Virus record (IMG/VR): IMGVR_UViG_3300045996_000340
Span: 1 to 43,692 of that record
From: a virus
Direction: 5' to 3' (one strand)
DNA: 43,692 bases
The notes under the pieces are model-generated. The model saw nothing but the letters and a program-made list of their open reading frames with translations, did no database searches and was not told where the DNA came from. Shown piece after piece: positions 1-43,692 of the stretch. Positions within the stretch are counted from its first letter, which is position 1; every line of letters starts with the position of its first letter. The position numbers and the translations under genes were made by a program.

Positions 1-93
1 CGTCGACCTTGGGGTGGCCGTCCTTGGTGAACTCCTGCGGCACCCAGCCCCTGAGCTTCTTCAGGCGGTCGGCGATGTGGTGCCGGCTGCTCG
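1..93. repeat. Contig-end duplication (identical to 43600..43692)
   Basis: Direct comparison: cgtcgaccttggggtggccg...gtgccggctgctcg is present at both ends. It lies inside the DNA polymerase reading frame. Confidence 0.9.
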
Positions 94-6458: not shown

Positions 6459-6470
6459 GATTGGATCAGG
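6455..6470 (-). promoter_or_regulatory. Motif copy CCTGATCCAATCCACC overlapping the RNAP stop codon
   Basis: CTGACCTATCCACC family (degenerate copy). Confidence 0.3.
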
Positions 6471-8961
6471 CGAAGAAGAAGTCGGACTGCTTGATCAGCT
6501 CCAGGTCCAGGGTGCCCATCGCCGGGGGCTCCGGGAGGGGCGCGCCGAGGACAGCCTCGACGCTGGCCTTGAGGTCGGCCAGGACGTTGTTCTCCTGGTA
6601 GAGGTCGATGAACGCCTGGCGCAGGCACTGCCCGAGCATCTCGGCGTCCGCGGCAGGGCAGCCGTAGCTGTCGTGGACCATGGCGAACTCCTCGATCCCA
6701 TTGTCCGCCGCGTAGCAGACCGAGAGCTGGAGGGCGGCGGCATCGAGCGAGTGGACGAAGTTGGGCGGGAAGGCGTTGCCCTGCTCCCTCCCGTTGATGG
6801 TGGGCAGGTACTCTTGAAGGCGGGGCTTGATGATCCGGTCACCGAGGCGGGTGTCCACCTGCCGGGACTTGGTTTCGTAGTACACCTGATGCACAGGGAA
6901 CCCCACCGGGGTCACCCACTCGATCGGCAGCTGCGCCTTGGACGTGACGGCAGCCACCTTCTTGAGCCAGTCCATGGCCTTGCGGGCGGCCACGACCACC
7001 TCCCCGATCGCGGTCCAGACGAGACGCGTCAGGAAGAGGGTCGGCTCCAGCAGCTCACCCATCGGCCACGGCGGGGTGTAGCTCGGGTCGCGCAGCTTGC
7101 GTGCCTCCACCTCCTCCTCGACGTGCTCCTGGATGTACTGCCGGCAGGAATGGCGCGTGCCGCTGTAGGGCACCACCATGACCGGCCGCTTGGTGGTCTT
7201 GCGGGTCACCCCGAAGTCCAGCCACTGCTGCGCCAGCACCCGCTCGGCTTCCTCCTCGTCGTTGGTTCCCGCAGTGGATACGATACGGCGCAGCTTATGC
7301 AGCGTGACCGTGGCCACCTCCTGGTAGATGTCGGCCGGCTTGTTGGACGGCACCAGGTTCACCGCCTTGCCACCCCTCGGGTCGCGCAGCATGGCGGAGT
7401 AGTGCTGGAGGCCGTTGCAGCTTCCGTCCAGCGAGATGGGCAGCGTTGAGACGAAGCCCCAGCCGTGGGCCTGGAAGGCGGCCCACTCGAAGCAGAAGGC
7501 GAGGAACTGCCAGGGCTTGTCGGCCTCGGTCCACCACCGCTCCGAGATCGGGTCGGCGGCACAGGCGAGGATCTGCTGCTCGTGCTCCTGGACCCACGCG
7601 ATGCGGCCGTCGAGGCTCACCTTGTCGTAGCCGAAGACGCCGGCGCCGTGGATCATGAGCCAGCCAGCGGCGACGGTGTCATTGATCGGCTTGCCCTTGG
7701 CGAAGGTCAGCAGCCCCTTGGCCAGGTCGTTGCCTTGCGGGGTCAGGTACTGAGGCATCGGATACACCCGCCCGCGGAAGTCGAGCTGGTGCGGGAAGTA
7801 GATCGCCTGCTCGTCCTTGAACTTGTCGGCCAGCCAGAGGATCTTCCCCGCCTGGAGCCGCTTGGACCTGAGCTTGGCGTTGTAGCCATGGATGCGGGCG
7901 GCGTCCCGCTTCCAAAGCTTCTTCATCTCCTCGTCCCGGAGGTGCTCGTGATCCCCCTCCGGCTTCTGCCCGCAGACAGGGCATGGAGGGAGAGCCACGT
8001 CATCCTTAGCTGGGAGCTTGCCGACCGTGATGCCGGCATCCCAGTACCAGTGGGCCACCGCCAGCACGTCCTTCCGGACGAGCCAGCCGGTGCGGTCGAT
8101 GCGCTCGACGGCCTCACGCACGGTGGCCATCTCGTCCCAGGAGGCGGCCATCTTCTTGAGGGTGATGTTCAGACCGCTCGACGTCTTGAGCAGGCGCCGC
8201 TTGGCGCGGTTGGTGTGGTATCCGCCATCGGTCGGGCTGGTCCATGGCTTCGGCTCGACCAGCATGGGGAGGAGCATCGGCGAGAGCAGCTCGCACCGAG
8301 AGACGGTCGAGTTGATCCAGGTGAGGGCCTTCTTGGTCGGGATCAGCTGCACCCGGCACTCGCGCCGGAGCTGGATGGTCTCGGTCTCAGCGAAGCCTGT
8401 CGTCTCGATCATCATGTCGAGACAAGCCATGCCCAGATGCATCCGCTCCTGCTGAGACATGCTAGTGTAAGCGGTGCCGTACTTGTTGGCGGCGTAGGTC
8501 ATGACCTTCTCGCGGTAGCCCCGGTGAGAGGACCGGCGGACGCTCTCGGAGACCTTGCCGTAGAGCTTCGGCTGCTGCTGCTCGAAGGCCTGGTAGTGCA
8601 GCTCGTTGTCCAGCTGGGCGCCGATCGACATGGCCACCTTCGTGACCGGCGTCGTGCGGGTGATGCTGTCGAGGACCACCTTCATGATGATGAAGGCGGC
8701 CACCTGAGGGTCGATCAGGGACAGGTGCTTGACGGCGCTGTGCCTGCGGCCACGGCCGCCAGACATGGCCTTCTCGATGAACGCCTCAATGGCCTGGGCC
8801 AAGGGCTTGATCGCCCGGCTGACCATCTCGATACCGTAGGGGGTGGTGCTCTCCTCGTGGGTGTCTCGGGCTCGGGCGAGGCGGGCTCGGAACTGGTCGG
8901 TCCCGAGGCCCTGCATCTCCGCCTCAAGCTCGGCTTGGCGCTGCATCAGGGTGTCGTTCAT
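6466..8961 (-). CDS. Single-subunit DNA-dependent RNA polymerase (T7 gp1-like)
   Basis: 831 aa. HQLDFRGRVYPMPQ, DGSCNGLQHYSAMLRD, VMVVPYSGTRHSCRQY, PPNFVHSLDAAAL, MVHDSYG, and C-terminal DFFFA (T7 ends FAFA). Confidence 0.97.
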   Translation of the reverse strand: MNDTLMQRQAELEAEMQGLGTDQFRARLARARDTHEESTTPYGIEMVSRAIKPLAQAIEAFIEKAMSGGRGRRHSAVKHLSLIDPQVAAFIIMKVVLDSITRTTPVTKVAMSIGAQLDNELHYQAFEQQQPKLYGKVSESVRRSSHRGYREKVMTYAANKYGTAYTSMSQQERMHLGMACLDMMIETTGFAETETIQLRRECRVQLIPTKKALTWINSTVSRCELLSPMLLPMLVEPKPWTSPTDGGYHTNRAKRRLLKTSSGLNITLKKMAASWDEMATVREAVERIDRTGWLVRKDVLAVAHWYWDAGITVGKLPAKDDVALPPCPVCGQKPEGDHEHLRDEEMKKLWKRDAARIHGYNAKLRSKRLQAGKILWLADKFKDEQAIYFPHQLDFRGRVYPMPQYLTPQGNDLAKGLLTFAKGKPINDTVAAGWLMIHGAGVFGYDKVSLDGRIAWVQEHEQQILACAADPISERWWTEADKPWQFLAFCFEWAAFQAHGWGFVSTLPISLDGSCNGLQHYSAMLRDPRGGKAVNLVPSNKPADIYQEVATVTLHKLRRIVSTAGTNDEEEAERVLAQQWLDFGVTRKTTKRPVMVVPYSGTRHSCRQYIQEHVEEEVEARKLRDPSYTPPWPMGELLEPTLFLTRLVWTAIGEVVVAARKAMDWLKKVAAVTSKAQLPIEWVTPVGFPVHQVYYETKSRQVDTRLGDRIIKPRLQEYLPTINGREQGNAFPPNFVHSLDAAALQLSVCYAADNGIEEFAMVHDSYGCPAADAEMLGQCLRQAFIDLYQENNVLADLKASVEAVLGAPLPEPPAMGTLDLELIKQSDFFFA

Positions 8962-9303: not shown

Positions 9304-9987
9304 TCAGGCGGCTTCGAGGTACGCGCGCTCCTCGGCGTGCCACGCCTCCAGCTCGGCGACGCTGAACAGGAGGGTGTCGTGGTTCAGGCGGCCGAAGCGC
9401 TTGGCGTTCTTGGTCTTGGTCCGCTCGGTGAGCTGGCCGACCGCCATCCAGTACTCGCGCATCGGTAGCTCGATGCCCTTGGCCTTGAGGAACCGGTCGA
9501 GGCTGGTCCAGACGTCGGCGTCGGGGAGCTTGGCCACGAGCCGGGCCTCGAACTCGGCGACCGCCTCGGGGTGCTGCTCGCGCACCTGGTCGCTGATGTA
9601 GACGCCTGCCTTGCGGATCGCCGGCAGGACCTCACGGGCTACCCAGTCCTGGAACCGCCGGGCGGCCGGCTTGTCCGACCGCATGATCAGCTTGTAGAGG
9701 CCGCTCTCGGAGACGAGAGAGACCACCGGGGTGGTGCCAGGGAACAGCTCTGCCGAAGCGGAGCAGGTCAGAGGTGCTCCACTGTCCTTCCGCAGAAGCC
9801 GCCGCTCGTCAGCGCTGACGCGGTGCATGTGGTGGTCGACCGCACCGTTGGCCTTCGGCGTCAGCTCCAGGCAACGGCACACGTCCTTGGTCACGAACCA
9901 GGGCTCGGCATCGATGGTCACGACCCGGACCTCGTTGGCGCCCTCGAAGGTGTAGACGGTCAGGTTGCTGGTCATCTCGCTCTCCAT
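9304..9987 (-). CDS. Bro-N domain protein (phage antirepressor-like)
   Basis: LTVYTFEGANEVRVVTIDAEPWFVTKDVCRCLEL...VSESGLYKLIMRSDKPAARRFQDWVAREVLPAIRKAGVY is a typical Bro-N pattern. The start is either ATG 9987 (abutting the motif) or ATG 9975 (preceded by GGAGAG). Confidence 0.8.
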   Translation of the reverse strand: MESEMTSNLTVYTFEGANEVRVVTIDAEPWFVTKDVCRCLELTPKANGAVDHHMHRVSADERRLLRKDSGAPLTCSASAELFPGTTPVVSLVSESGLYKLIMRSDKPAARRFQDWVAREVLPAIRKAGVYISDQVREQHPEAVAEFEARLVAKLPDADVWTSLDRFLKAKGIELPMREYWMAVGQLTERTKTKNAKRFGRLNHDTLLFSVAELEAWHAEERAYLEAA

Positions 9988-10003
9988 GGTGGATACAAGT
10001 CTG
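9988..10003 (-). promoter_or_regulatory. Motif copy CAGACTTGTATCCACC directly abutting ATG 9987
   Basis: CTGACCTATCCACC family. Confidence 0.4.
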
Positions 10004-10203
10004 TCGGAACGTGGCTCCCCGCCTGGCTTTGCGAGCCGTTCTAGGGCCGAACGCAACACGGGTGGCGGGGTGAGCGGGGAGGCTAAGCGTTTGATTTTCC
10101 GTTCGACACATGCCGGCCTGGATACCATTCCACGGGGGCATGGCTGGTGTATGGATTTGGGCGTGAACAGGGTGGGAACACAGCGCCTGGACAGAGGGGG
10201 AAC

Positions 10204-10222
10204 ACGCAACAAATACGCAACA
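10204..10222 (+). repeat. ACGCAACA x2 (10204-10211, 10215-10222), candidate recombinase or regulator arm-type sites
   Basis: Read directly. The same 8-mer recurs at 10497-10504 and, inverted, at 20286-20293 and 20298-20305. Confidence 0.5.
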
Positions 10223-10253
10223 TGGCCAATCCACCCTTGCAGTCTGTCGGCAG

Positions 10254-10371: not shown

Positions 10372-10458
10372 TGGTGCCGGGGACGGGAGTTGAACCCGTA
10401 AGCCCTTGCGGGCGCTGGATTTTGAGTCCAGTGCGTTTACCAGTTTCGCCACCCCGGC
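10372..10458 (-). tRNA. tRNA-Leu (anticodon CAA), type II with long variable arm and encoded CCA
   Basis: Minus strand GCCGGGGTGGCGAAACTGGTAAACGCACTGGACTCAAAATCCAGCGCCCGCAAGGGCTTACGGGTTCAACTCCCGTCCCCGGCACCA. 7-bp acceptor stem GCCGGGG/CCCCGGC, anticodon stem CTGGA/TCCAG with loop CTCAAAA, variable-arm hairpin GCCC-GCAA-GGGC, T-arm ACGGG-TTCAACT-CCCGT. Confidence 0.9.
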
Positions 10459-10459
10459 C

Positions 10460-10504
10460 CGCAACATTCGCGACCGAATGCAACATCGCCGCAACAACGC
10501 AACA
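10460..10504 (+). repeat. Cluster of four (C/T)GCAACA repeats immediately 5' of the tRNA gene
   Basis: gcaaca at 10461, 10480, 10491 and 10499, read directly. Confidence 0.5.
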
Positions 10505-10524
10505 TGCCACGTCGGTGCATCAGA

Positions 10525-11025
10525 TCAAGTCTGATCGCGGTCCGGTAGGCCCACGAGTTTGAACTTGCAACGCCGATCCTGGGGGCAGTCCCGGAGCTTT
10601 CGGCGCGCTTCGACGACCGCAGCTGCGATCCGGTCCGCCGCGGCGACCACGTCTTCGTGCTCCCAGACGGTGAAAAGCGTCCAGCCCTCAACGCGCAGTC
10701 GATAGGCCGTATCTTCGTCCCTTGCGCGGGTGTGGGCGAGCTTTTCACGCCACCATTCGCCGTTGGCTTTTGGTATGACGCCATGTTGCGGGCAGTGGTG
10801 CCAGAAGCACCCGCGGACTTCCACCGCTATGCGGACGGTCCTGAAGACGAGGTCGATGTGCCTCCGCAAGCCGGGAACGGGTCGTTGGAACAAGCGGTAG
10901 CGGAGACCGCGCCGGTGAAGCTCCCGGCGCAAGGCCACCTCCGGCTTCGTGTCCCGTCGCGATTGTCGTTGCATCCGGTTGCGGACATCCGGCGAACTGG
11001 CAAAGCTGACGCCCTTTCGTACCAT
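10525..11025 (-). CDS. vsr: Very short patch repair endonuclease (Vsr)
   Basis: SRRDTKPEVALRRELHRRGLRYR, IAVEVRGCFWHHCP, PKANGEWWREKL, RDEDT...GWTLFTVWEHE: canonical Vsr blocks. Confidence 0.9.
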   Translation of the reverse strand: MVRKGVSFASSPDVRNRMQRQSRRDTKPEVALRRELHRRGLRYRLFQRPVPGLRRHIDLVFRTVRIAVEVRGCFWHHCPQHGVIPKANGEWWREKLAHTRARDEDTAYRLRVEGWTLFTVWEHEDVVAAADRIAAAVVEARRKLRDCPQDRRCKFKLVGLPDRDQT

Positions 11026-11124
11026 TAGGTCGTTTCCTCCGCCGCGATATCGCCAAGGGGTAGACTCCAGGATAGCGCTTGTGCCTTATGGCAACCACCA
11101 CTGCGCGAGTTCGGAGGTCTGAAG

Positions 11125-11796
11125 TTGCCTTCACATGTATTGGCCAGAGAGCCTGACCCACGCGGCTTCGCGAACGATCAGGCGCTGGCCGCGCTTGGGC
11201 TTCGCCGTGAGCAGATCGCCAACAGCATCATGGGCACGTACCGCCTCTTCGACCGCATCGACTCGACGCTGGCGACTGACGGCGTAGCCCCGCTGTGCCA
11301 GATCATCGAGCTGGCCAACCTCAGCAGCATGATGGGCAACATCATGGGCGCAGAGTTGGCGAAACACAGCGACGGGCTTTATCGCCGTAACGGCCCCCAC
11401 AAGTACCCCGATCTCCTGCCCCTTGGCGAGTTGGCGGTAAGAGGCGGCATAGAGATCAAGTTTTCGTTGAACCGCAATTATCCGAAGGGGCACCTTGCCA
11501 AGGAAGGGTACTACATCACCTGTCGGTATATCCTGGTCGGCGAGAATGGAGAGAGAATAGGAGAGGTGGCCGATCGACCAAAGGCGAGCAAGGCCGTCAT
11601 ATGGGAAGTCAGGACGGGCCATCTCGGGATCGCTCACTTCAACCTCAGCAATACCGAAGGCGACTCCGGTAAGACGGCTGTGATCAATGCTGCCGGCATG
11701 GAGGAGCTGAAGACAGTGTACGTCGACTTGGCCATGGTGCCCGGCAGCCAACGGGGTGCGCGCTATAAGGCTTACCGTTACCTCGTGGGCCGCTAG
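11125..11796 (+). CDS. PD-(D/E)XK nuclease, candidate Type II restriction endonuclease partner of the adjacent methyltransferase
   Basis: 223 aa. HKYPDLLPLGELAVRGGIEIKFS gives PD...E-x-K spacing. TTG start with GGAGG 8 nt upstream. It converges tail-to-tail (5-nt gap) with the C5 MTase and is divergent from vsr. No family was recognised by eye. Confidence 0.5.
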   Translation: MPSHVLAREPDPRGFANDQALAALGLRREQIANSIMGTYRLFDRIDSTLATDGVAPLCQIIELANLSSMMGNIMGAELAKHSDGLYRRNGPHKYPDLLPLGELAVRGGIEIKFSLNRNYPKGHLAKEGYYITCRYILVGENGERIGEVADRPKASKAVIWEVRTGHLGIAHFNLSNTEGDSGKTAVINAAGMEELKTVYVDLAMVPGSQRGARYKAYRYLVGR

Positions 11797-11801
11797 GGGG
11801 T

Positions 11802-13253
11802 TCAGTCCGACTCCAGAATTGCCTCGGCAATCAGCCTCCCGAGAAGGGGCGGCACCGCGTTACCGATCTGCTTCACCACCTGTGACCGCATGCCACTGAA
11901 TTCGAACGTGTCGAAGAAACCTTGCAGCCTGGCTCCCTCGCGAGGCGTGAGGGCTCGGTCTTGGATGGGGTGGATGCACCGGTTGCTCGCTGGGTGGACA
12001 AAGTTGACCGTGATGGTGTTCGCCGGCTCGTCCCCATCAAGCCTGCTGTAGCAGGTGCTGAACCCGGACGTCACCAACCCCGGTGGCAAACAGTTGATGT
12101 TCTTCCCAGCATGTCGAATGATCTCAAGCATCGCTGGGGTATGCGAGGTCGCGTCATGAAGCGTCAGCCGCTCAGCTCCGGCTCGGATCACCTCTGCATA
12201 GCGCGACACCGGGGCGTCCTCGTTGTATTCCGTCGCGGCCTCTCCCGAACGCACCGGGGGTAGGTCGCCGATTGCCTCCATAACGGTGACGGCCGGACGC
12301 GTGTCCCCGAGGAAGCCAGGATCGGGCATCAAGAGCAGGGGAGAGTTCCCGACCATCGACCGCCGGTCGTGATGGTGCGTGGGCTTCGGCCATTCAAACG
12401 CCTTTCCTCGCCGCGAACCGACGATGATCAAGCGTTCACGGCGCTGGGGTAGGCCGTGGTACGCGGCGTTCAGCACTCGGGCTGACACCCGATAACCCAA
12501 CGCCTCGAACGCCCCGAGAAGGGCCTGGTACACCTTGCCATCCTTGTGAGAAAGGAGGCCTACGACATTCTCGAAAACCAGCCAGTCTGGCTCAAGCGCC
12601 GCCACAATTCGGCAGAACTCTTCACCGAGATTATTGCGCGGGTCATGCCATTCGACATTGCGGAACGGCCGTAGAGAGGAAAACCCTTGGCAGGGTGGCC
12701 CACCGATGACAGCAAAGGGGGGTGGGTTTTCTGAAGCCAATGTCTCCGTCGCTAACTTGCGGATGTCCATACCGTATGCGTTTGCGGCGGCATGATTGGT
12801 AGCAAAGGTCTCCAGCCGGTCACCAAGCAGATCCACGCCTGCGACAACTTCGAACTCCCAGGTAGCTTCAAAACCAGCGCTGAGACCACCAATGCCGCAG
12901 AACAGGTCGATAACGGGGCGAAGACCAAGGTCAGGTTCTCTCCGGCGGCGCCGAACCGTCTCGGCTTCGGGAATGGCCGTCACGTATCCTTCGCCGGAGA
13001 CCGCCACGCTCGGCTTGACGCCGTTTAGGTCTGCGCCAAGCGCGCGCTCCAGGCGGCGGGCGTCTTCCTCCGATAGGGGGTCAAGACCGCGTTCTAGGCG
13101 CGCCAAAGCGGAAACAGTCATGCCGGCATGCCGTGCCAGTTCGCGTTGGGCAAGTCCTTTCGCTAACCTGAGCCGACGGATATCGATGTAGGCGTGGGCG
13201 CTCATTGATTTGCGATGCCTTCCTTGAGTGTTGAAGACATTCCGGGATCGCAC
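11802..13253 (-). CDS. DNA (cytosine-5) methyltransferase with N-terminal XRE-type HTH domain
   Basis: HTH LAKGLAQRELARHAGMTVSALARLERG. MTase motifs: I DLFCGIGGLSAGF, IV GGPPCQGFS, VI FENVVGL, VIII QRRERLIIVG, X GNAVPPLL. An alternative start MSAHAY at 13205 is plausible. Confidence 0.93.
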   Translation of the reverse strand: MRSRNVFNTQGRHRKSMSAHAYIDIRRLRLAKGLAQRELARHAGMTVSALARLERGLDPLSEEDARRLERALGADLNGVKPSVAVSGEGYVTAIPEAETVRRRRREPDLGLRPVIDLFCGIGGLSAGFEATWEFEVVAGVDLLGDRLETFATNHAAANAYGMDIRKLATETLASENPPPFAVIGGPPCQGFSSLRPFRNVEWHDPRNNLGEEFCRIVAALEPDWLVFENVVGLLSHKDGKVYQALLGAFEALGYRVSARVLNAAYHGLPQRRERLIIVGSRRGKAFEWPKPTHHHDRRSMVGNSPLLLMPDPGFLGDTRPAVTVMEAIGDLPPVRSGEAATEYNEDAPVSRYAEVIRAGAERLTLHDATSHTPAMLEIIRHAGKNINCLPPGLVTSGFSTCYSRLDGDEPANTITVNFVHPASNRCIHPIQDRALTPREGARLQGFFDTFEFSGMRSQVVKQIGNAVPPLLGRLIAEAILESD

Positions 13254-13439
13254 CTGCTCGGCTTTTTGGCCGCGGCGTCGATCAACTCGGGTTTCCTCCT
13301 TGCTCCAGAGCCAAACGGTACACTGGACGCCATAGCTGGCGCTACGCTATGCATCCGGTGCTGGCGCGCAGAGTTGTACCAGACTGTCTGGAGCGCGACC
13401 AGTGGTCGAGCTATTAGGCGCGGGTGGGGCAGCTCGGCC

Positions 13440-14465
13440 TTAGTTTGCTTCGAGGGCCTGAACCGCAGCCAGGAGGTTGGCCGGTGCCAGGTGCGCGTAG
13501 CGCATGGTGACCTGGATCGTCTTGTGACCCATCCACTCCTGGACCACCTTCAGGGGCACGCTGCGCTGGACCAGGCGGCTGGCGCAGGTGTGGCGCAGGG
13601 CGTGGGGCACGAACTGCTTGTCCTCGCCAAGCCCCATGGTCACCTTCGCCCGGTCCCATGGGCGGCGCAGCCAGTCGTGGTTGTAGGGGAACAGCCTGGG
13701 GCCGGAGCCGTAGGCGCCATAGGCAGCTGCGTGCATGCGGCGCTTGATCACCTCGTAGGCGCGCTTGGTCAGCGGCACCGAGCGAGGGTGGTCGGCCTTG
13801 TTCTCCCACACATGCAGGAGCCGCTGCTTTTGGTCGACGTCGCGCACCGTCAGGCGGAACAGCTCGCCGACCCGGAGCCCGGTGTCGATCAGCACAGTGA
13901 CGGCATCGACGTGATCCGGCAGGGACCACTGCTCCAGCAGCCCGAGCAGGGAGCGCTCCTCGTCCGCCGTGAGGTAGCGGATGCGGCCGACCCCCTCCCG
14001 CAGGCGGGGCAGCTTGGGCTTGTAGCTCAGCCCCCGACGATCGACGGCCACGGTCAGGACCTTGGACAGGGCGGCCAGCTTCCGGTTGATGGTGCCGTTG
14101 GCCAGCCCCTCGTCCTTGAGCGCCTGCACGTACTCGTCGAGGGCGTCGGTGGTGATCCGGTCGAGCTTCGTGTCGGCGCCGAAGTGGTCGAGCGCTGTCT
14201 GCGCGTTGACCTGGGCGGTGTGCCCTCCTCGGGTGTCAGCCCAGGCCACACGCAGGGTGGTGTCGAGCGCCCGCTGGAGGGTCCAGACCTCGAAGGCGGG
14301 GGCCGAAGGCTCGCCTGCCTTCAGCTCCCGTTGCTTCGCGATGGCCTCTTCGAGAGAGTGGCAGGTTGCAGTCTGGCGGGTGGGACCGGCACCTACCGAG
14401 ACGAGGTAGCTGTCGCCTCGGACACGAATGCCTCGGGGAAGTCGGATGCCGGCGACGACAGCCAT
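13440..14465 (-). CDS. int: Tyrosine recombinase / phage integrase
   Basis: Internal ATG MAVVAGIRLP.... Catalytic residues in TGLRVGE (R), HALRHTCAS (H-x-x-R) and MGHKTIQVTMRYAH (H...Y). There is an N-terminal SAM-like core-binding region. Confidence 0.9.
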   Translation of the reverse strand: MAVVAGIRLPRGIRVRGDSYLVSVGAGPTRQTATCHSLEEAIAKQRELKAGEPSAPAFEVWTLQRALDTTLRVAWADTRGGHTAQVNAQTALDHFGADTKLDRITTDALDEYVQALKDEGLANGTINRKLAALSKVLTVAVDRRGLSYKPKLPRLREGVGRIRYLTADEERSLLGLLEQWSLPDHVDAVTVLIDTGLRVGELFRLTVRDVDQKQRLLHVWENKADHPRSVPLTKRAYEVIKRRMHAAAYGAYGSGPRLFPYNHDWLRRPWDRAKVTMGLGEDKQFVPHALRHTCASRLVQRSVPLKVVQEWMGHKTIQVTMRYAHLAPANLLAAVQALEAN

Positions 14466-14830
14466 GCTGCGGTCTCCTCGATAGCGGGCGGTGCGGTGAG
14501 GGCCTCGTCGGAGGCTGCCTCGATTGTGGCAGTGGCCGCAGTGACTGCCATGAGGGCAGCCGCTGAAGCCTTCGGCATGGCAGGCATCAGGGACGACAGG
14601 GATGTCAGGGCCGACGCCTCGCACCAGACGAAGGTGAACGCTGCGGCGGCCGTGCTAGTAGCCTGGCGCGCGATGCGCCGGGCACTGGTTGCGATCAGGT
14701 GGAGGCGGCCGACCCACACGAACAGCTCGCCGTCCTCACGGTAGGCGTCGATGAACCGTCTCCCCCGGTTAGTGGGGTACTCGGCGAAGAGGGCGCCGAG
14801 ATTACGGATCTCCTTGTAGATCGAGAACAT
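14393..14830 (-). CDS. Hypothetical protein (145 aa) with an Ala/Thr-rich C-terminal half; overlaps the integrase start by 73 nt
   Basis: ORF track. The start lies 1 nt after the MarR-like gene stop codon (translational coupling). No motif was recognised. Confidence 0.4.
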   Translation of the reverse strand: MFSIYKEIRNLGALFAEYPTNRGRRFIDAYREDGELFVWVGRLHLIATSARRIARQATSTAAAAFTFVWCEASALTSLSSLMPAMPKASAAALMAVTAATATIEAASDEALTAPPAIEETAAWLSSPASDFPEAFVSEATATSSR

Positions 14831-14831
14831 C

Positions 14832-15182
14832 CTAGCTTTCCCCTTGTGCGATCGCCATCAGGCGATCTTTGAGTTGCTTGCCCCTCGGTGTAAGCGTCAC
14901 GATCTTGCGGCGCCGCTCGTAGGGGTCCTCAGTTGCCTTCACCAAGTCCAGACCCGGCTTCCGCAGCCGGTGTATTTTGCTCAGCGCCGAGACGTTCCTC
15001 GACATCGTCGACTGAGCCACGCCGAGGGCATCCGCAATGTCCTTCATCGTGCAGCCCTCATGCACCACGATGTAGAGGAAGGTGTTGACGGTCTGCGAGG
15101 GCAGCTCCTGGTCGAGCTTCCTGAACTCCTCGATGGCCTTGAACATCCTGTAGATGGGGGCGGTCCCATTCGTCTTCGCCAT
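14832..15182 (-). CDS. MarR-family winged-helix transcriptional regulator (candidate lysogeny or island regulator)
   Basis: LPSQTVNTFLYIVVHEGCTMKDIADALGVAQSTMSRNVSALSK...DPYERRRKIVTLTPRGKQL is a typical MarR wHTH plus wing. Confidence 0.8.
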   Translation of the reverse strand: MAKTNGTAPIYRMFKAIEEFRKLDQELPSQTVNTFLYIVVHEGCTMKDIADALGVAQSTMSRNVSALSKIHRLRKPGLDLVKATEDPYERRRKIVTLTPRGKQLKDRLMAIAQGES

Positions 15183-42684: not shown

Positions 42685-43692
42685 TTGCGATGGCCTCCCT
42701 CGCCATGAGCTGTACTTCGTCGTGGACGTGGGCGGCCGGCCACCAATCCGTGGGGACAACCAAGCCCTGGGTGGATAGGTCACGGCGCAAGAGAACCGTG
42801 GCCGTCTTGAAGGCGATCGAGCCGGTGGATTGCAGGAGGGTGTTCAGGGCGCTGTGCTGCGAGCGCACCGGGACGGCACGGCCGTCGATGCCCTTCAGCC
42901 AGTCGCGGCCCTCCAGGGCCTTCGCCAGGTCACCCATGAGGGTGCCCTTCTGGCCGACCTTGCCGATGCCGAGGCCCTTCGCGAGGCGGTCGCGGACAGC
43001 CTTGCCGAGCTTCTGTGGGTTGGTGCTCGGCGGGGTGAGGCCCAGCCTGGCGTAGTACTCCAGCACGATCGTGCCGAGCTTCTTGTCGCCCGCCCCGTAG
43101 AGCAGGGCGTACATCTCGGTCTTGGAGCAGTCACGGTTGGGGCTCAGCTCTTGGAGCGCATCCATGTTGACCTGGTGGATGTCGCCTTCGAGCAGCTCCT
43201 TGATGAACTTCCCGTCGTCGTACCTTGCGAGGTAGTGGCCGAGGCAGCGCAGCTCCAAGCCGGACGCGTCGGCGCCGACCTGGAGGTAGCCCTCGGGGGC
43301 GTGGAACAGACTGCGGCATTCCCAGCCGAAGCCGCCCTCGATCCCCATGAGGATGACCTTCTTGCCGTCGACCTTCGTGACCTGGACCTTCGGCACCTGG
43401 GTCACGTTCGGCCTGCGGTGGGTGCAGCGATGGGTCGGCGTCCCGATCGGGATCACCTCGCCGTGGATGCGGCCGTTGGCCTTGACCGCCTTGAGCCAGC
43501 CTTCCTTGCCGTCGCCGAGCTGGCCCAGCCGCTTCGCCACCATGAGGTACTCCGCGAGCTGCGGCGCCTCCGGGTAGGGGAGCTGGCTGATCACCACGTC
43601 GTCGACCTTGGGGTGGCCGTCCTTGGTGAACTCCTGCGGCACCCAGCCCCTGAGCTTCTTCAGGCGGTCGGCGATGTGGTGCCGGCTGCTCG
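42569..43692 (-). CDS. DNA polymerase, T7 gp5-like, C-terminal polymerase part (continuation of 1..928; 43600-43692 duplicates 1-93)
   Basis: RRPNVTQVPK, DASGLELRCLGHYL, ALLYGAGDKKLG, HVHDEVQL, and C-terminal FRCPLDGEYKVGKNWAETH (T7 ends FRCLLDTEGKMGPNWAICH). Confidence 0.95.
   Translation of the reverse strand, partial: SSRHHIADRLKKLRGWVPQEFTKDGHPKVDDVVISQLPYPEAPQLAEYLMVAKRLGQLGDGKEGWLKAVKANGRIHGEVIPIGTPTHRCTHRRPNVTQVPKVQVTKVDGKKVILMGIEGGFGWECRSLFHAPEGYLQVGADASGLELRCLGHYLARYDDGKFIKELLEGDIHQVNMDALQELSPNRDCSKTEMYALLYGAGDKKLGTIVLEYYARLGLTPPSTNPQKLGKAVRDRLAKGLGIGKVGQKGTLMGDLAKALEGRDWLKGIDGRAVPVRSQHSALNTLLQSTGSIAFKTATVLLRRDLSTQGLVVPTDWWPAAHVHDEVQLMAREAIANELGMSAVQSIRRAGERLGFRCPLDGEYKVGKNWAETH
42770..42785 (-). 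promoter_or_regulatory. Motif copy CCGTGACCTATCCACC inside the DNAP coding region (codons RRDLSTQ), upstream of 42361..42684
   Basis: CTGACCTATCCACC family. It is the only copy clearly inside a long gene. Confidence 0.35.
43600..43692. repeat. Contig-end duplication (identical to 1..93)
   Basis: See feature 1..93. Confidence 0.9.

Follow-up and report, generated by a model that had tools for sequence, protein, structure and literature searches.

How does a phage that replicates its DNA quickly come to carry a restriction enzyme, and what would such an enzyme do for it? The question is raised by IMG/VR virus record IMGVR_UViG_3300045996_000340, a DNA of 43,692 nucleotides (nt) that was analysed over its whole length, positions 1 to 43,692, and is referred to below as the window. 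Three adjacent genes in this window encode a Vsr mismatch endonuclease, a protein of 223 amino acids (aa) and a C5 cytosine methyltransferase, and they lie between a tRNA-Leu gene and an integrase gene in a genome that otherwise resembles that of phage T7. [quoted passage not shown] An earlier reading, made from the letters of the DNA alone (the sequence-only reading), had described the three genes as an apparently complete Type II restriction-modification unit with Vsr, and had asked how the phage protects its own DNA and whether the unit serves defence, addiction or self-methylation. The analysis described here supports, with a probability of roughly 80%, the view that the block is an acquired three-gene Type II restriction-modification cassette, carried as cargo in the slot between the integrase and tRNA-Leu genes of a temperate T7-like phage, and that it would work in the manner proposed below. 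The three genes are found where they had been placed (Table 1), with the methyltransferase open reading frame (ORF) spanning 11802–13253 on the minus strand.

The first step is the identity of the 223-aa protein. Its gene begins with a TTG codon preceded by GGAGG 7 nt upstream, and it converges on the methyltransferase gene with only 5 nt between the two stop codons, as had been noted earlier. The PD...E-x-K nuclease signature that the sequence-only reading recognized is borne out by conservation, as E62, P95-D96 and E110-x-K112 do not vary among 34 aligned homologues and follow the E...PD...(D/E)xK order of EcoRV-type active sites. The window protein retains all 47 residues that are invariant in the family, the catalytic ones among them. 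Searches with the sequence returned no match in Pfam (E ≤ 0.01), NCBIfam or PHROG, and only a weak match to the PADLOC REase_II model; neither single-sequence nor profile searches found a match among the Protein Data Bank (PDB) sequences. A structure was predicted with AlphaFold (AF2) from the homologue alignment, and the model has a mean predicted local distance difference test score (pLDDT) of 92.9 and a predicted template-modelling score (pTM) of 0.90. Comparison of this model with solved structures using Foldseek identified NaeI (probability 0.99–1.0, template-modelling score (TM) 0.44–0.47), BglI, EcoRV, PvuII, NlaIV and SwaI, and every match with a probability of about 0.5 or higher is a Type II restriction enzyme. 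The only credible fold matches thus lie in the EcoRV/NaeI/PvuII/BglI branch, with which the protein shares the spacing of its catalytic residues (E62, D96, E110, K112) but only 8–13% sequence identity at TM values of 0.44–0.47. The predicted catalytic core and fold are accordingly those of a restriction enzyme. A more specific identity with SinI/AvaII/Eco47I (GGWCC) was suspected from the size of about 230 aa and from an 'M.SinI' label in Streptococcus phage phi-SsuHCJ31_comEC, and was ruled out since the protein has no match to RE_SinI (PF09570), the Pfam family of SinI and AvaII (PMC3424549).

The company that this protein keeps in other genomes provides a second line of evidence. A neighbourhood survey covered 80 loci from species-representative genomes of many phyla, and in 79 of them an orthologous C5 methyltransferase gene lies within 500 base pairs (bp) of the nuclease homologue. 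These neighbouring methyltransferases are 49–80% identical to that of the window over their catalytic and target-recognition parts, indicating that the two genes are inherited together. Of the 80 loci, in contrast, only about 13 have a Vsr gene beside the pair. This difference bears on the possibility that the 223-aa protein is a repair nuclease, or another PD-(D/E)XK nuclease without a role in restriction, that works with Vsr next to a solitary methyltransferase. Such a role could be entertained because no curated family names the protein and because PD-(D/E)XK folds serve many functions (PMC3424549). It is nonetheless highly improbable, as the protein pairs with the methyltransferase and not with Vsr, as its credible structural matches are all restriction enzymes, and as other layouts of the family bear hallmarks of restriction genes (see below). 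The profile searches, which had been suggested along with the sequence-only reading, likewise matched the protein to no non-restriction PD-(D/E)XK family. Catalytic conservation, predicted fold and pairing with a methyltransferase are three independent lines that agree, and the 223-aa protein is therefore almost certainly the restriction endonuclease belonging to a Type II system that is widespread and unannotated.

The extent of this family is considerable. More than 590 homologues were retrieved with the window protein as query and more than 1000 with a member from Escherichia coli, and the family comprises more than 1000 sequence clusters with members in E. coli, Klebsiella, Salmonella, Serratia and Vibrio cholerae. 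These proteins are labelled 'hypothetical' or 'HTH transcriptional regulator' (HTH, helix-turn-helix) in public annotation, which constitutes an annotation gap for a family of what are almost certainly restriction enzymes. Two layouts are observed. In the first, that of the window, the genes are convergent and an HTH domain is fused to the methyltransferase; in the second, the genes are divergent and the HTH domain is either fused to the nuclease or encoded by a small, overlapping C gene. Members with the divergent layout carry a C-protein-type HTH before or fused to the nuclease together with a GACTATAGTC C-box, a hallmark of restriction genes. The E. coli GMF054 chromosome provides an example (locus L098, 4444–6562), in which the gene for a 376-aa methyltransferase is divergent from the gene for an 84-aa C protein that overlaps the gene for a 210-aa nuclease, with a GAGACTATAGTCTC C-box between them. 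This system sits in an island flanked by integrase and insertion sequence (IS) genes, and its cluster includes members from Klebsiella and Enterobacter, all of which are annotated as hypothetical or in generic terms; a literature search on plasmid pA15BP4 found nothing. The same triplet of genes as in the window is present in chromosomal or integrase-linked settings on metagenomic alphaproteobacterial contigs (L002–L004, L010, L091, L093). Given this recurrence in unrelated chromosomal and island contexts, the triplet is a mobile unit and no invention of the phage. A broken copy of the nuclease family was also observed in Streptococcus phage phi-SsuHCJ31_comEC (L001, 4968–5517), where it is split into two pieces of which only 116 aa are annotated, and where its neighbours are a C5 methylase and another annotated endonuclease. 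The top match that was obtained in the viral structure library (36% identity, equal length) is probably the 116-aa fragment.

The second gene of the block encodes the modification enzyme. The alignment of its product to PF00145 covers positions 3–323 of 324, the TIGR00675 score lies above the cut-off, and the full set of motifs expected of a C5 methyltransferase dependent on S-adenosylmethionine is present, with motifs I, IV, VI, VIII, IX and X readable in the translation as FCGIGG, PPCQGFS, ENV, QRRERL, TPREGARLQGF and GNAVPP. Translation most likely starts at the ATG at 13205 rather than at the GTG at 13253, because the resulting length of 467 aa matches that of the closest homologues and because AAGGAAGG stands upstream of this codon. 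The enzyme is 52% identical to its E. coli orthologue, the target-recognition region included. The fusion of an HTH domain to its N-terminus, which had been proposed from the sequence, is confirmed by the HTH_3 match (Table 1), and the same fusion is found in 37 loci, the window counted among them. This domain has a weak PDB match to a lambda-repressor-like protein and has no detectable homology with the E. coli C protein. In the SsoII/Ecl18kI, EcoRII and MspI systems the N-terminal DNA-binding region of the C5 methyltransferase is autoregulatory, and the window enzyme has the same architecture.

The third gene encodes Vsr. The protein scores 100.9 bits against the TIGR00632 model (cut-off 97.85), and it can be aligned to E. 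coli Vsr (1cw0) at 4.7e-11, with conservation of the catalytic and zinc-binding blocks that contain D (HIDL), GCFWHH and VWE. Its tail is about 40 aa longer than in homologues (113–125 aa), and the ORF reads in frame across the junction between cassette and phage backbone (10525–10540), such that the last 4–5 codons (…RDQT) and the stop codon are backbone DNA. It follows that the insertion replaced or lost the original 3' end of the gene. Vsr genes are rare in phages, being present in 14 of 50,697 isolated-phage records, none of which is T7-like. Taken with the predicted nuclease fold, the 79 of 80 pairing and the Vsr score above the curated cut-off, the adjacent and separately encoded endonuclease and methyltransferase uphold the earlier call of a complete Type II unit with Vsr.

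How the unit came to its present place was examined by comparison with three sister phages. These are the only close relatives of the window phage, all of them metagenomic IMG/VR contigs (L094–L096), and they share the gene order MarR, integrase, tRNA-Leu(CAA), RNA polymerase, with integrases 81–89% and RNA polymerases 85–87% identical to those of the window. DNA homology to all three ends with the integrase stop codon; it is found again from about 10539, some 80 bp upstream of the tRNA. Each sister phage has something different in the intervening slot: 427 bp without a detected cargo gene in L094 (9075–9512), a 459-aa protein with a PIN_12 domain in L095 (8224–9603), and in L096 (9104–12081) a Vsr and a C5 methyltransferase that differ from those of the window (42% and 30% identical, respectively), together with a 396-aa ORF without a family match, which is possibly the nuclease of that set. 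The block also differs in composition, with a G+C content of 0.60–0.62 compared with 0.65–0.69 around it, in agreement with the lower G+C that had been remarked on between the tRNA and the integrase, and with a G+C content at third codon positions (GC3) of 0.68–0.76 compared with 0.84–0.95 in backbone genes. The break points and the lower GC3 establish the cassette as horizontally acquired, foreign cargo in the slot between the integrase stop codon and tRNA-Leu. No direct repeats or transposon ends were found at its junctions. The presence of a full restriction, modification and repair cassette in a slot where other cargo is swapped suggests that the temperate T7-like group carries exchangeable cargo as other prophages do.

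A foreign composition on a single metagenomic contig could also arise if a cassette from a bacterial chromosome had been mis-joined to a phage contig during assembly. This is scarcely credible here, since both junctions coincide exactly with the edges of the variable slot in three independently assembled sister phages, one of which holds an analogous cassette, since a 93-bp overlap closes the contig into a circle, and since the Vsr ORF continues in frame into the backbone.

The carrier itself is well defined. The ends of the window (1–93 and 43600–43692) share the same 93 bp, and the join is spanned by the DNA polymerase gene; the window thus represents a genome of about 43,599 bp, circularly closed (or terminally redundant), that was opened within the replication module. 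Its gene content and order are T7-like, as had been claimed, with a single-subunit RNA polymerase, a primase/helicase, a gp2.5-like single-stranded DNA-binding protein, an endonuclease, an exonuclease, a portal and a scaffold protein, all on the minus strand. A MarR-like regulator and a tyrosine integrase are encoded upstream of the RNA polymerase, with tRNA-Leu beside the integrase, and this layout, shared by the three sister phages, is that of the Autographiviridae with a lysogeny module. The same order of MarR-like regulator, tyrosine integrase, tRNA-Leu and RNA polymerase is known from LUZ100, Pelagibacter phage HTVC019P and Agrobacterium phage Pasto, and a tRNA-Leu gene beside the integrase has been reported in other temperate T7-like phages (PMC10134795). 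By its gene content, the window phage would thus belong to the known temperate T7-like group with this module, and its tRNA-Leu(CAA) is the probable attachment-site partner of the integrase. Over a stretch of 157 bp, the integrase gene and those of Ralstonia T7-like phages are about 82% identical in DNA. More distant relatives of the RNA polymerase (42–46% identity) are found on long bacterial contigs, mostly alphaproteobacterial, and the closest relatives of the cassette are mostly alphaproteobacterial as well.

Table 1. Features of the cassette and of the flanking lysogeny and polymerase genes, in window coordinates.
Feature	Position	Strand	Evidence
Cargo cassette, about 2.9 kb	10540–13439		Between integrase stop codon and conserved region upstream of tRNA-Leu
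Vsr very-short-patch T:G mismatch endonuclease, 166 aa	10525–11025	−	TIGR00632; Pfam PF03852 7e-14; PADLOC Vsr; phrog_13076
Divergent Vsr/nuclease intergenic region, presumed promoters for both	11026–11124		Sequence position
Type II restriction endonuclease (almost certain), 223 aa, PD-(D/E)XK, EcoRV/NaeI-like predicted fold	11125–11796	+	Invariant residues; AF2 model; Foldseek; gene pairing; PADLOC REase_II 1.6e-4
C5 cytosine methyltransferase with N-terminal XRE-type HTH, 467 aa	11802–13205	−	PF00145 2.4e-58; TIGR00675 1.9e-53; PADLOC MTase_II 5e-90; ORF open to GTG 13253
HTH_3 domain of methyltransferase	13026–13181	−	PF01381 1.7e-11; PF13560 3.5e-11; residues 25–76 of 483-aa ORF
Methyltransferase upstream region, cassette-specific	13206–13439	−	Eight inverted repeats including CATAGC-N9-GCTATG at 13331–13351
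T7-type single-subunit RNA polymerase	6466–8961	−	PF00940 and PF14700; downstream of cassette; 85–87% identity in three sister phages
tRNA-Leu(CAA)	10372–10458	−	ARAGORN; conserved in all sister phages
Tyrosine integrase	13440–14624	−	PF00589 2.3e-28; phrog_1 5e-55; 81–89% identity in sister phages; immediately upstream of cassette in the direction of transcription
MarR-like regulator	14832–15182	−	phrog_9665 9e-37; MarR_2 5.8e-6; lysogeny module together with integrase

The orientation of the genes suggests how the unit could be tolerated by its carrier. The methyltransferase and Vsr genes are co-oriented with all other phage genes and lie directly downstream of the integrase, and the nuclease gene is the only convincing plus-strand gene in the genome. 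On the relevant strands, no terminator was found in the region that separates the methyltransferase gene from the integrase or in the gap of the convergent pair. In LUZ100 the host polymerase transcribes the MarR-integrase operon and, to a limited extent, reads on into the phage polymerase gene (PMC10134795). Since the methyltransferase and Vsr genes follow the MarR-integrase operon directly and in the same orientation, early read-through toward the RNA polymerase gene of the window phage would yield methyltransferase message first. Since the nuclease gene is opposed, with a convergent gap of 5 nt and no terminator, the same read-through would be antisense to the nuclease gene and would collide with its transcription. 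Expression of the nuclease would then rely on a host-type promoter of its own in the intergenic region between Vsr and nuclease, and the HTH domain of the methyltransferase would probably add autoregulation. Methylation would in this way be favoured while the early region is transcribed, sparing fast-replicating phage DNA from self-restriction.

In the proposed mechanism, the methyltransferase would place 5-methylcytosine (5mC) on a short palindrome in prophage and host DNA, while the nuclease, as a homodimeric PD-(D/E)XK enzyme, would cleave incoming DNA that lacks the mark, such that the lysogen is defended from other phages and the prophage is incidentally stabilized. Its placement in the EcoRV/NaeI structural branch suggests that the nuclease is likely a blunt cutter. 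Vsr would nick the T:G mismatches that arise from deaminated methylcytosines, thereby sparing the sites from mutational loss. A fast-replicating phage that must tolerate its own nuclease makes the window phage a compact system in which to ask how this is done.

The same arrangement also enters into the alternative that the unit is a weapon in lytic growth, in which the nuclease shreds the unmethylated host chromosome for nucleotides as in chloroviruses. T7-like phages do degrade host DNA, and the DNA of this phage would presumably bear the mark from the previous cycle. Such a role is very unlikely, however, because the nuclease gene is the sole gene opposed to phage transcription and would need a host-type promoter, because the phage already has an endonuclease and an exonuclease for the breakdown of host DNA, and because the same cassette resides in ordinary chromosomes.

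A different purpose for the pair in a lysogen is that of an addiction module, which chiefly stabilizes the prophage by post-segregational killing rather than protecting the host from other phages. Type II systems are known to act as addiction modules. The position of the cassette at what would be a prophage end, beside the integrase, and its linkage to integrases in other genomes are consistent with such a role, which deserves consideration even if it appears less probable than not to be the chief one. Addiction is compatible with defence, however, and both the presence of Vsr and regulated expression fit long-term residence under either function.

A more specific proposal is that the gap between integrase and tRNA-Leu is a dedicated exchange slot for defence cargo, in which placement makes methylase first and silences the antisense nuclease in lytic growth, so that the lysogen restricts other phages and the lytic phage never restricts itself. 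The cargo would then occupy the only route that host polymerase can take in reading from the MarR-integrase operon through to the gene for the phage RNA polymerase. Recombination within the tRNA would leave MarR, integrase and cassette at one end of the prophage and the RNA polymerase at the other, uncoupled from read-through, and it is possible that this uncoupling by integration is a built-in silencing of the lytic programme. The proposal as a whole is tentative.

Regulatory signals in the cassette were sought in the two upstream regions. The sequence-only reading had nominated the inverted repeat CATAGC-N9-GCTATG as a candidate operator for the HTH domain. The repeat itself is present, 126 bp upstream of the methyltransferase start codon, but the operator assignment is not supported, as a stretch of 271 bp holds eight inverted repeats of 6 nt or more, this one included, where an estimated 0.75 or so would be expected by chance, and as the repeat is not conserved in the nearest cassettes (L091, L010, L002, L093), several of which have another gene before the methyltransferase. 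A second candidate, ATAGCG-N9/10-TATGGC, which occurs both upstream of the methyltransferase and in the Vsr/nuclease intergenic region, was rejected because an equal match was obtained in 374 of 3000 shuffles (12.5%). In a cyanobacterial branch of the family (L006/L007, L018, L063) and in other relatives, a conserved palindrome AATGATGAC-TATnnGn-ATCATT stands before the HTH-methyltransferase genes beside a TTGAC(A)/TTGAT box, and this AATGATGAC...ATCATT palindrome is likely the operator of the fusion in that branch. The nucleases of the cyanobacterial branch also carry an N-terminal HTH domain of their own.

Several observations weigh against the reading of the block as a working restriction-modification cassette of a temperate phage. 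No operator for the HTH-methyltransferase was validated in the window, and a scan of the block with the sigma-70 consensus gave no promoter match for any of the three genes. The closest relatives of the RNA polymerase (85–87% identity) are all free viral contigs with no integrated copy among them, although no dedicated prophage scan was made. Compared with solved restriction enzymes, the nuclease has a moderately similar fold (TM < 0.5, best Foldseek E-value 1.9e-3), so that its family stands apart within the EcoRV/NaeI structural branch. Finally, the genome is one metagenomic assembly, and the restriction enzyme of the window is seen on a single contig.

The recognition sequence of the system was approached through site depletion. 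Because the target-recognition region of the methyltransferase is highly conserved from the window phage to E. coli, a single site is to be expected for the entire family. In 736 kb of DNA around family members, CACGTG has the lowest ratio of observed to expected occurrences (0.37; 46 compared with 126) among 2075 hexamers, and it ranks third, first and second when the loci are divided into three G+C strata. Eco72I and PmlI leave blunt ends when they cut CACGTG, and a blunt cut at this site would suit an EcoRV-like fold. In the source strain of PmlI the recognition site bears m5C (PMC8112702), 5mC at CACGTG blocks Eco72I (PMC4865653), and the Eco72I system has a C gene upstream of its R gene (PMC2997769). 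In the family described here, members with the divergent layout similarly have a C gene upstream of or overlapping the start of the nuclease gene, along with the C-box, whereas the window has its HTH domain on the methyltransferase. The depletion of CACGTG in loci of unrelated T7-like phages (ratio 0.43, rank 15) weighs against this lead, and the assignment of an Eco72I/PmlI-type CACGTG site to the window system is a doubtful one. If it were true, the phage would have only five sites to protect, at 1934, 2816, 17578, 19025 and 35620.

A count of candidate palindromes in the window genome itself had also been suggested as a route to the specificity. Many GC-rich 6-bp palindromes are indeed strongly avoided, including CTCGAG (2 observed, 35.7 expected), GAGCTC (0, 27.4), CCCGGG (2, 19.7), GGGCCC (0, 13.0), GGATCC (0, 11.9) and CTGCAG (0, 8.0). 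A similar avoidance of GC-rich 6-bp palindromes is seen across 83 T7-like loci, and the pattern in the window probably reflects heavy restriction pressure from host systems. The count therefore did not point to the specificity of the unit, for which the weak CACGTG lead came from the pooled carrier loci only.

Such pressure gives some support to a narrower role, in which the unit mainly methylates phage DNA so as to evade systems of the same specificity in new hosts, while its nuclease has no activity or no importance. The methyltransferase gene has the orientation of all phage transcription and would be crossed by early read-through, and C5 methyltransferase matches without a partner nuclease are found in 5 of 80 other T7-like loci. 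Against self-protection as the only function, the nuclease ORF is intact, with a good ribosome-binding site and the full complement of family-invariant residues, and its family almost never occurs without a methyltransferase, indicating a toxic, active enzyme. This narrower role is consequently unlikely.

Among known systems, the closest precedent for the trio as cargo of a temperate phage is Burkholderia phage KL3, a P2-like phage that encodes an EcoRII-C endonuclease (gp45), Vsr (gp46) and an EcoRII-type C5 methylase (gp47). KL3 differs from the window phage in that it belongs to the Peduoviridae, its nuclease is unrelated, its three genes are co-oriented, and its methylase has no HTH domain in the annotation. 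The SsoII/Ecl18kI/EcoRII/MspI systems resemble that of the window in the N-terminal HTH on the C5 methyltransferase, in the convergent R and M genes of EcoRII, and in the palindrome that is found in relatives of the window system; the window nuclease is, in contrast, unrelated to those of SsoII, EcoRII and MspI (no Pfam match). Among temperate T7-like phages, the LUZ100 paper contains no mention of restriction or methylase genes (PMC10134795), and the window phage differs in having 2.9 kb of cargo between integrase and tRNA. A wider comparison of 83 T7-like polymerase loci in IMG/VR revealed an integrase homologue in 28, some C5 methyltransferase match in 6, Vsr only in L096, and the nuclease family of the window in none.

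The statement that such a unit is unusual in a T7-type genome is therefore correct, but it is to be set in the context of a known temperate T7-like group, the analogous cassette of L096 and the KL3 trio. The occurrence of Type II systems on temperate phages, of Vsr beside C5 methylases and of HTH-regulated methylases was already known. What is new is the T7-like carrier, the use of the gap between integrase and tRNA as a cargo exchange slot in this lineage, and a nuclease family that public annotation has not recognized as restriction enzymes. As all of the elements have precedent, the conceptual gain is modest.

Two further observations concern the region around the tRNA. The octamer WTGTTGCR occurs 10 times in the window (2.6 expected), and 6 of these copies flank tRNA-Leu on the minus strand, 4 just upstream (10460–10505) and 2 downstream (10205–10223). 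The upstream block is kept in the sister phages, and the octamers are candidate arm sites for the integrase or candidate MarR operators, at the attachment site or at the polymerase promoter. Between the tRNA and the RNA polymerase lies a Bro-N/anti-repressor-like gene (9304–10212, minus strand), which is present in L096 (12209–13025) and missing in L094 and L095, marking a second variable spot.

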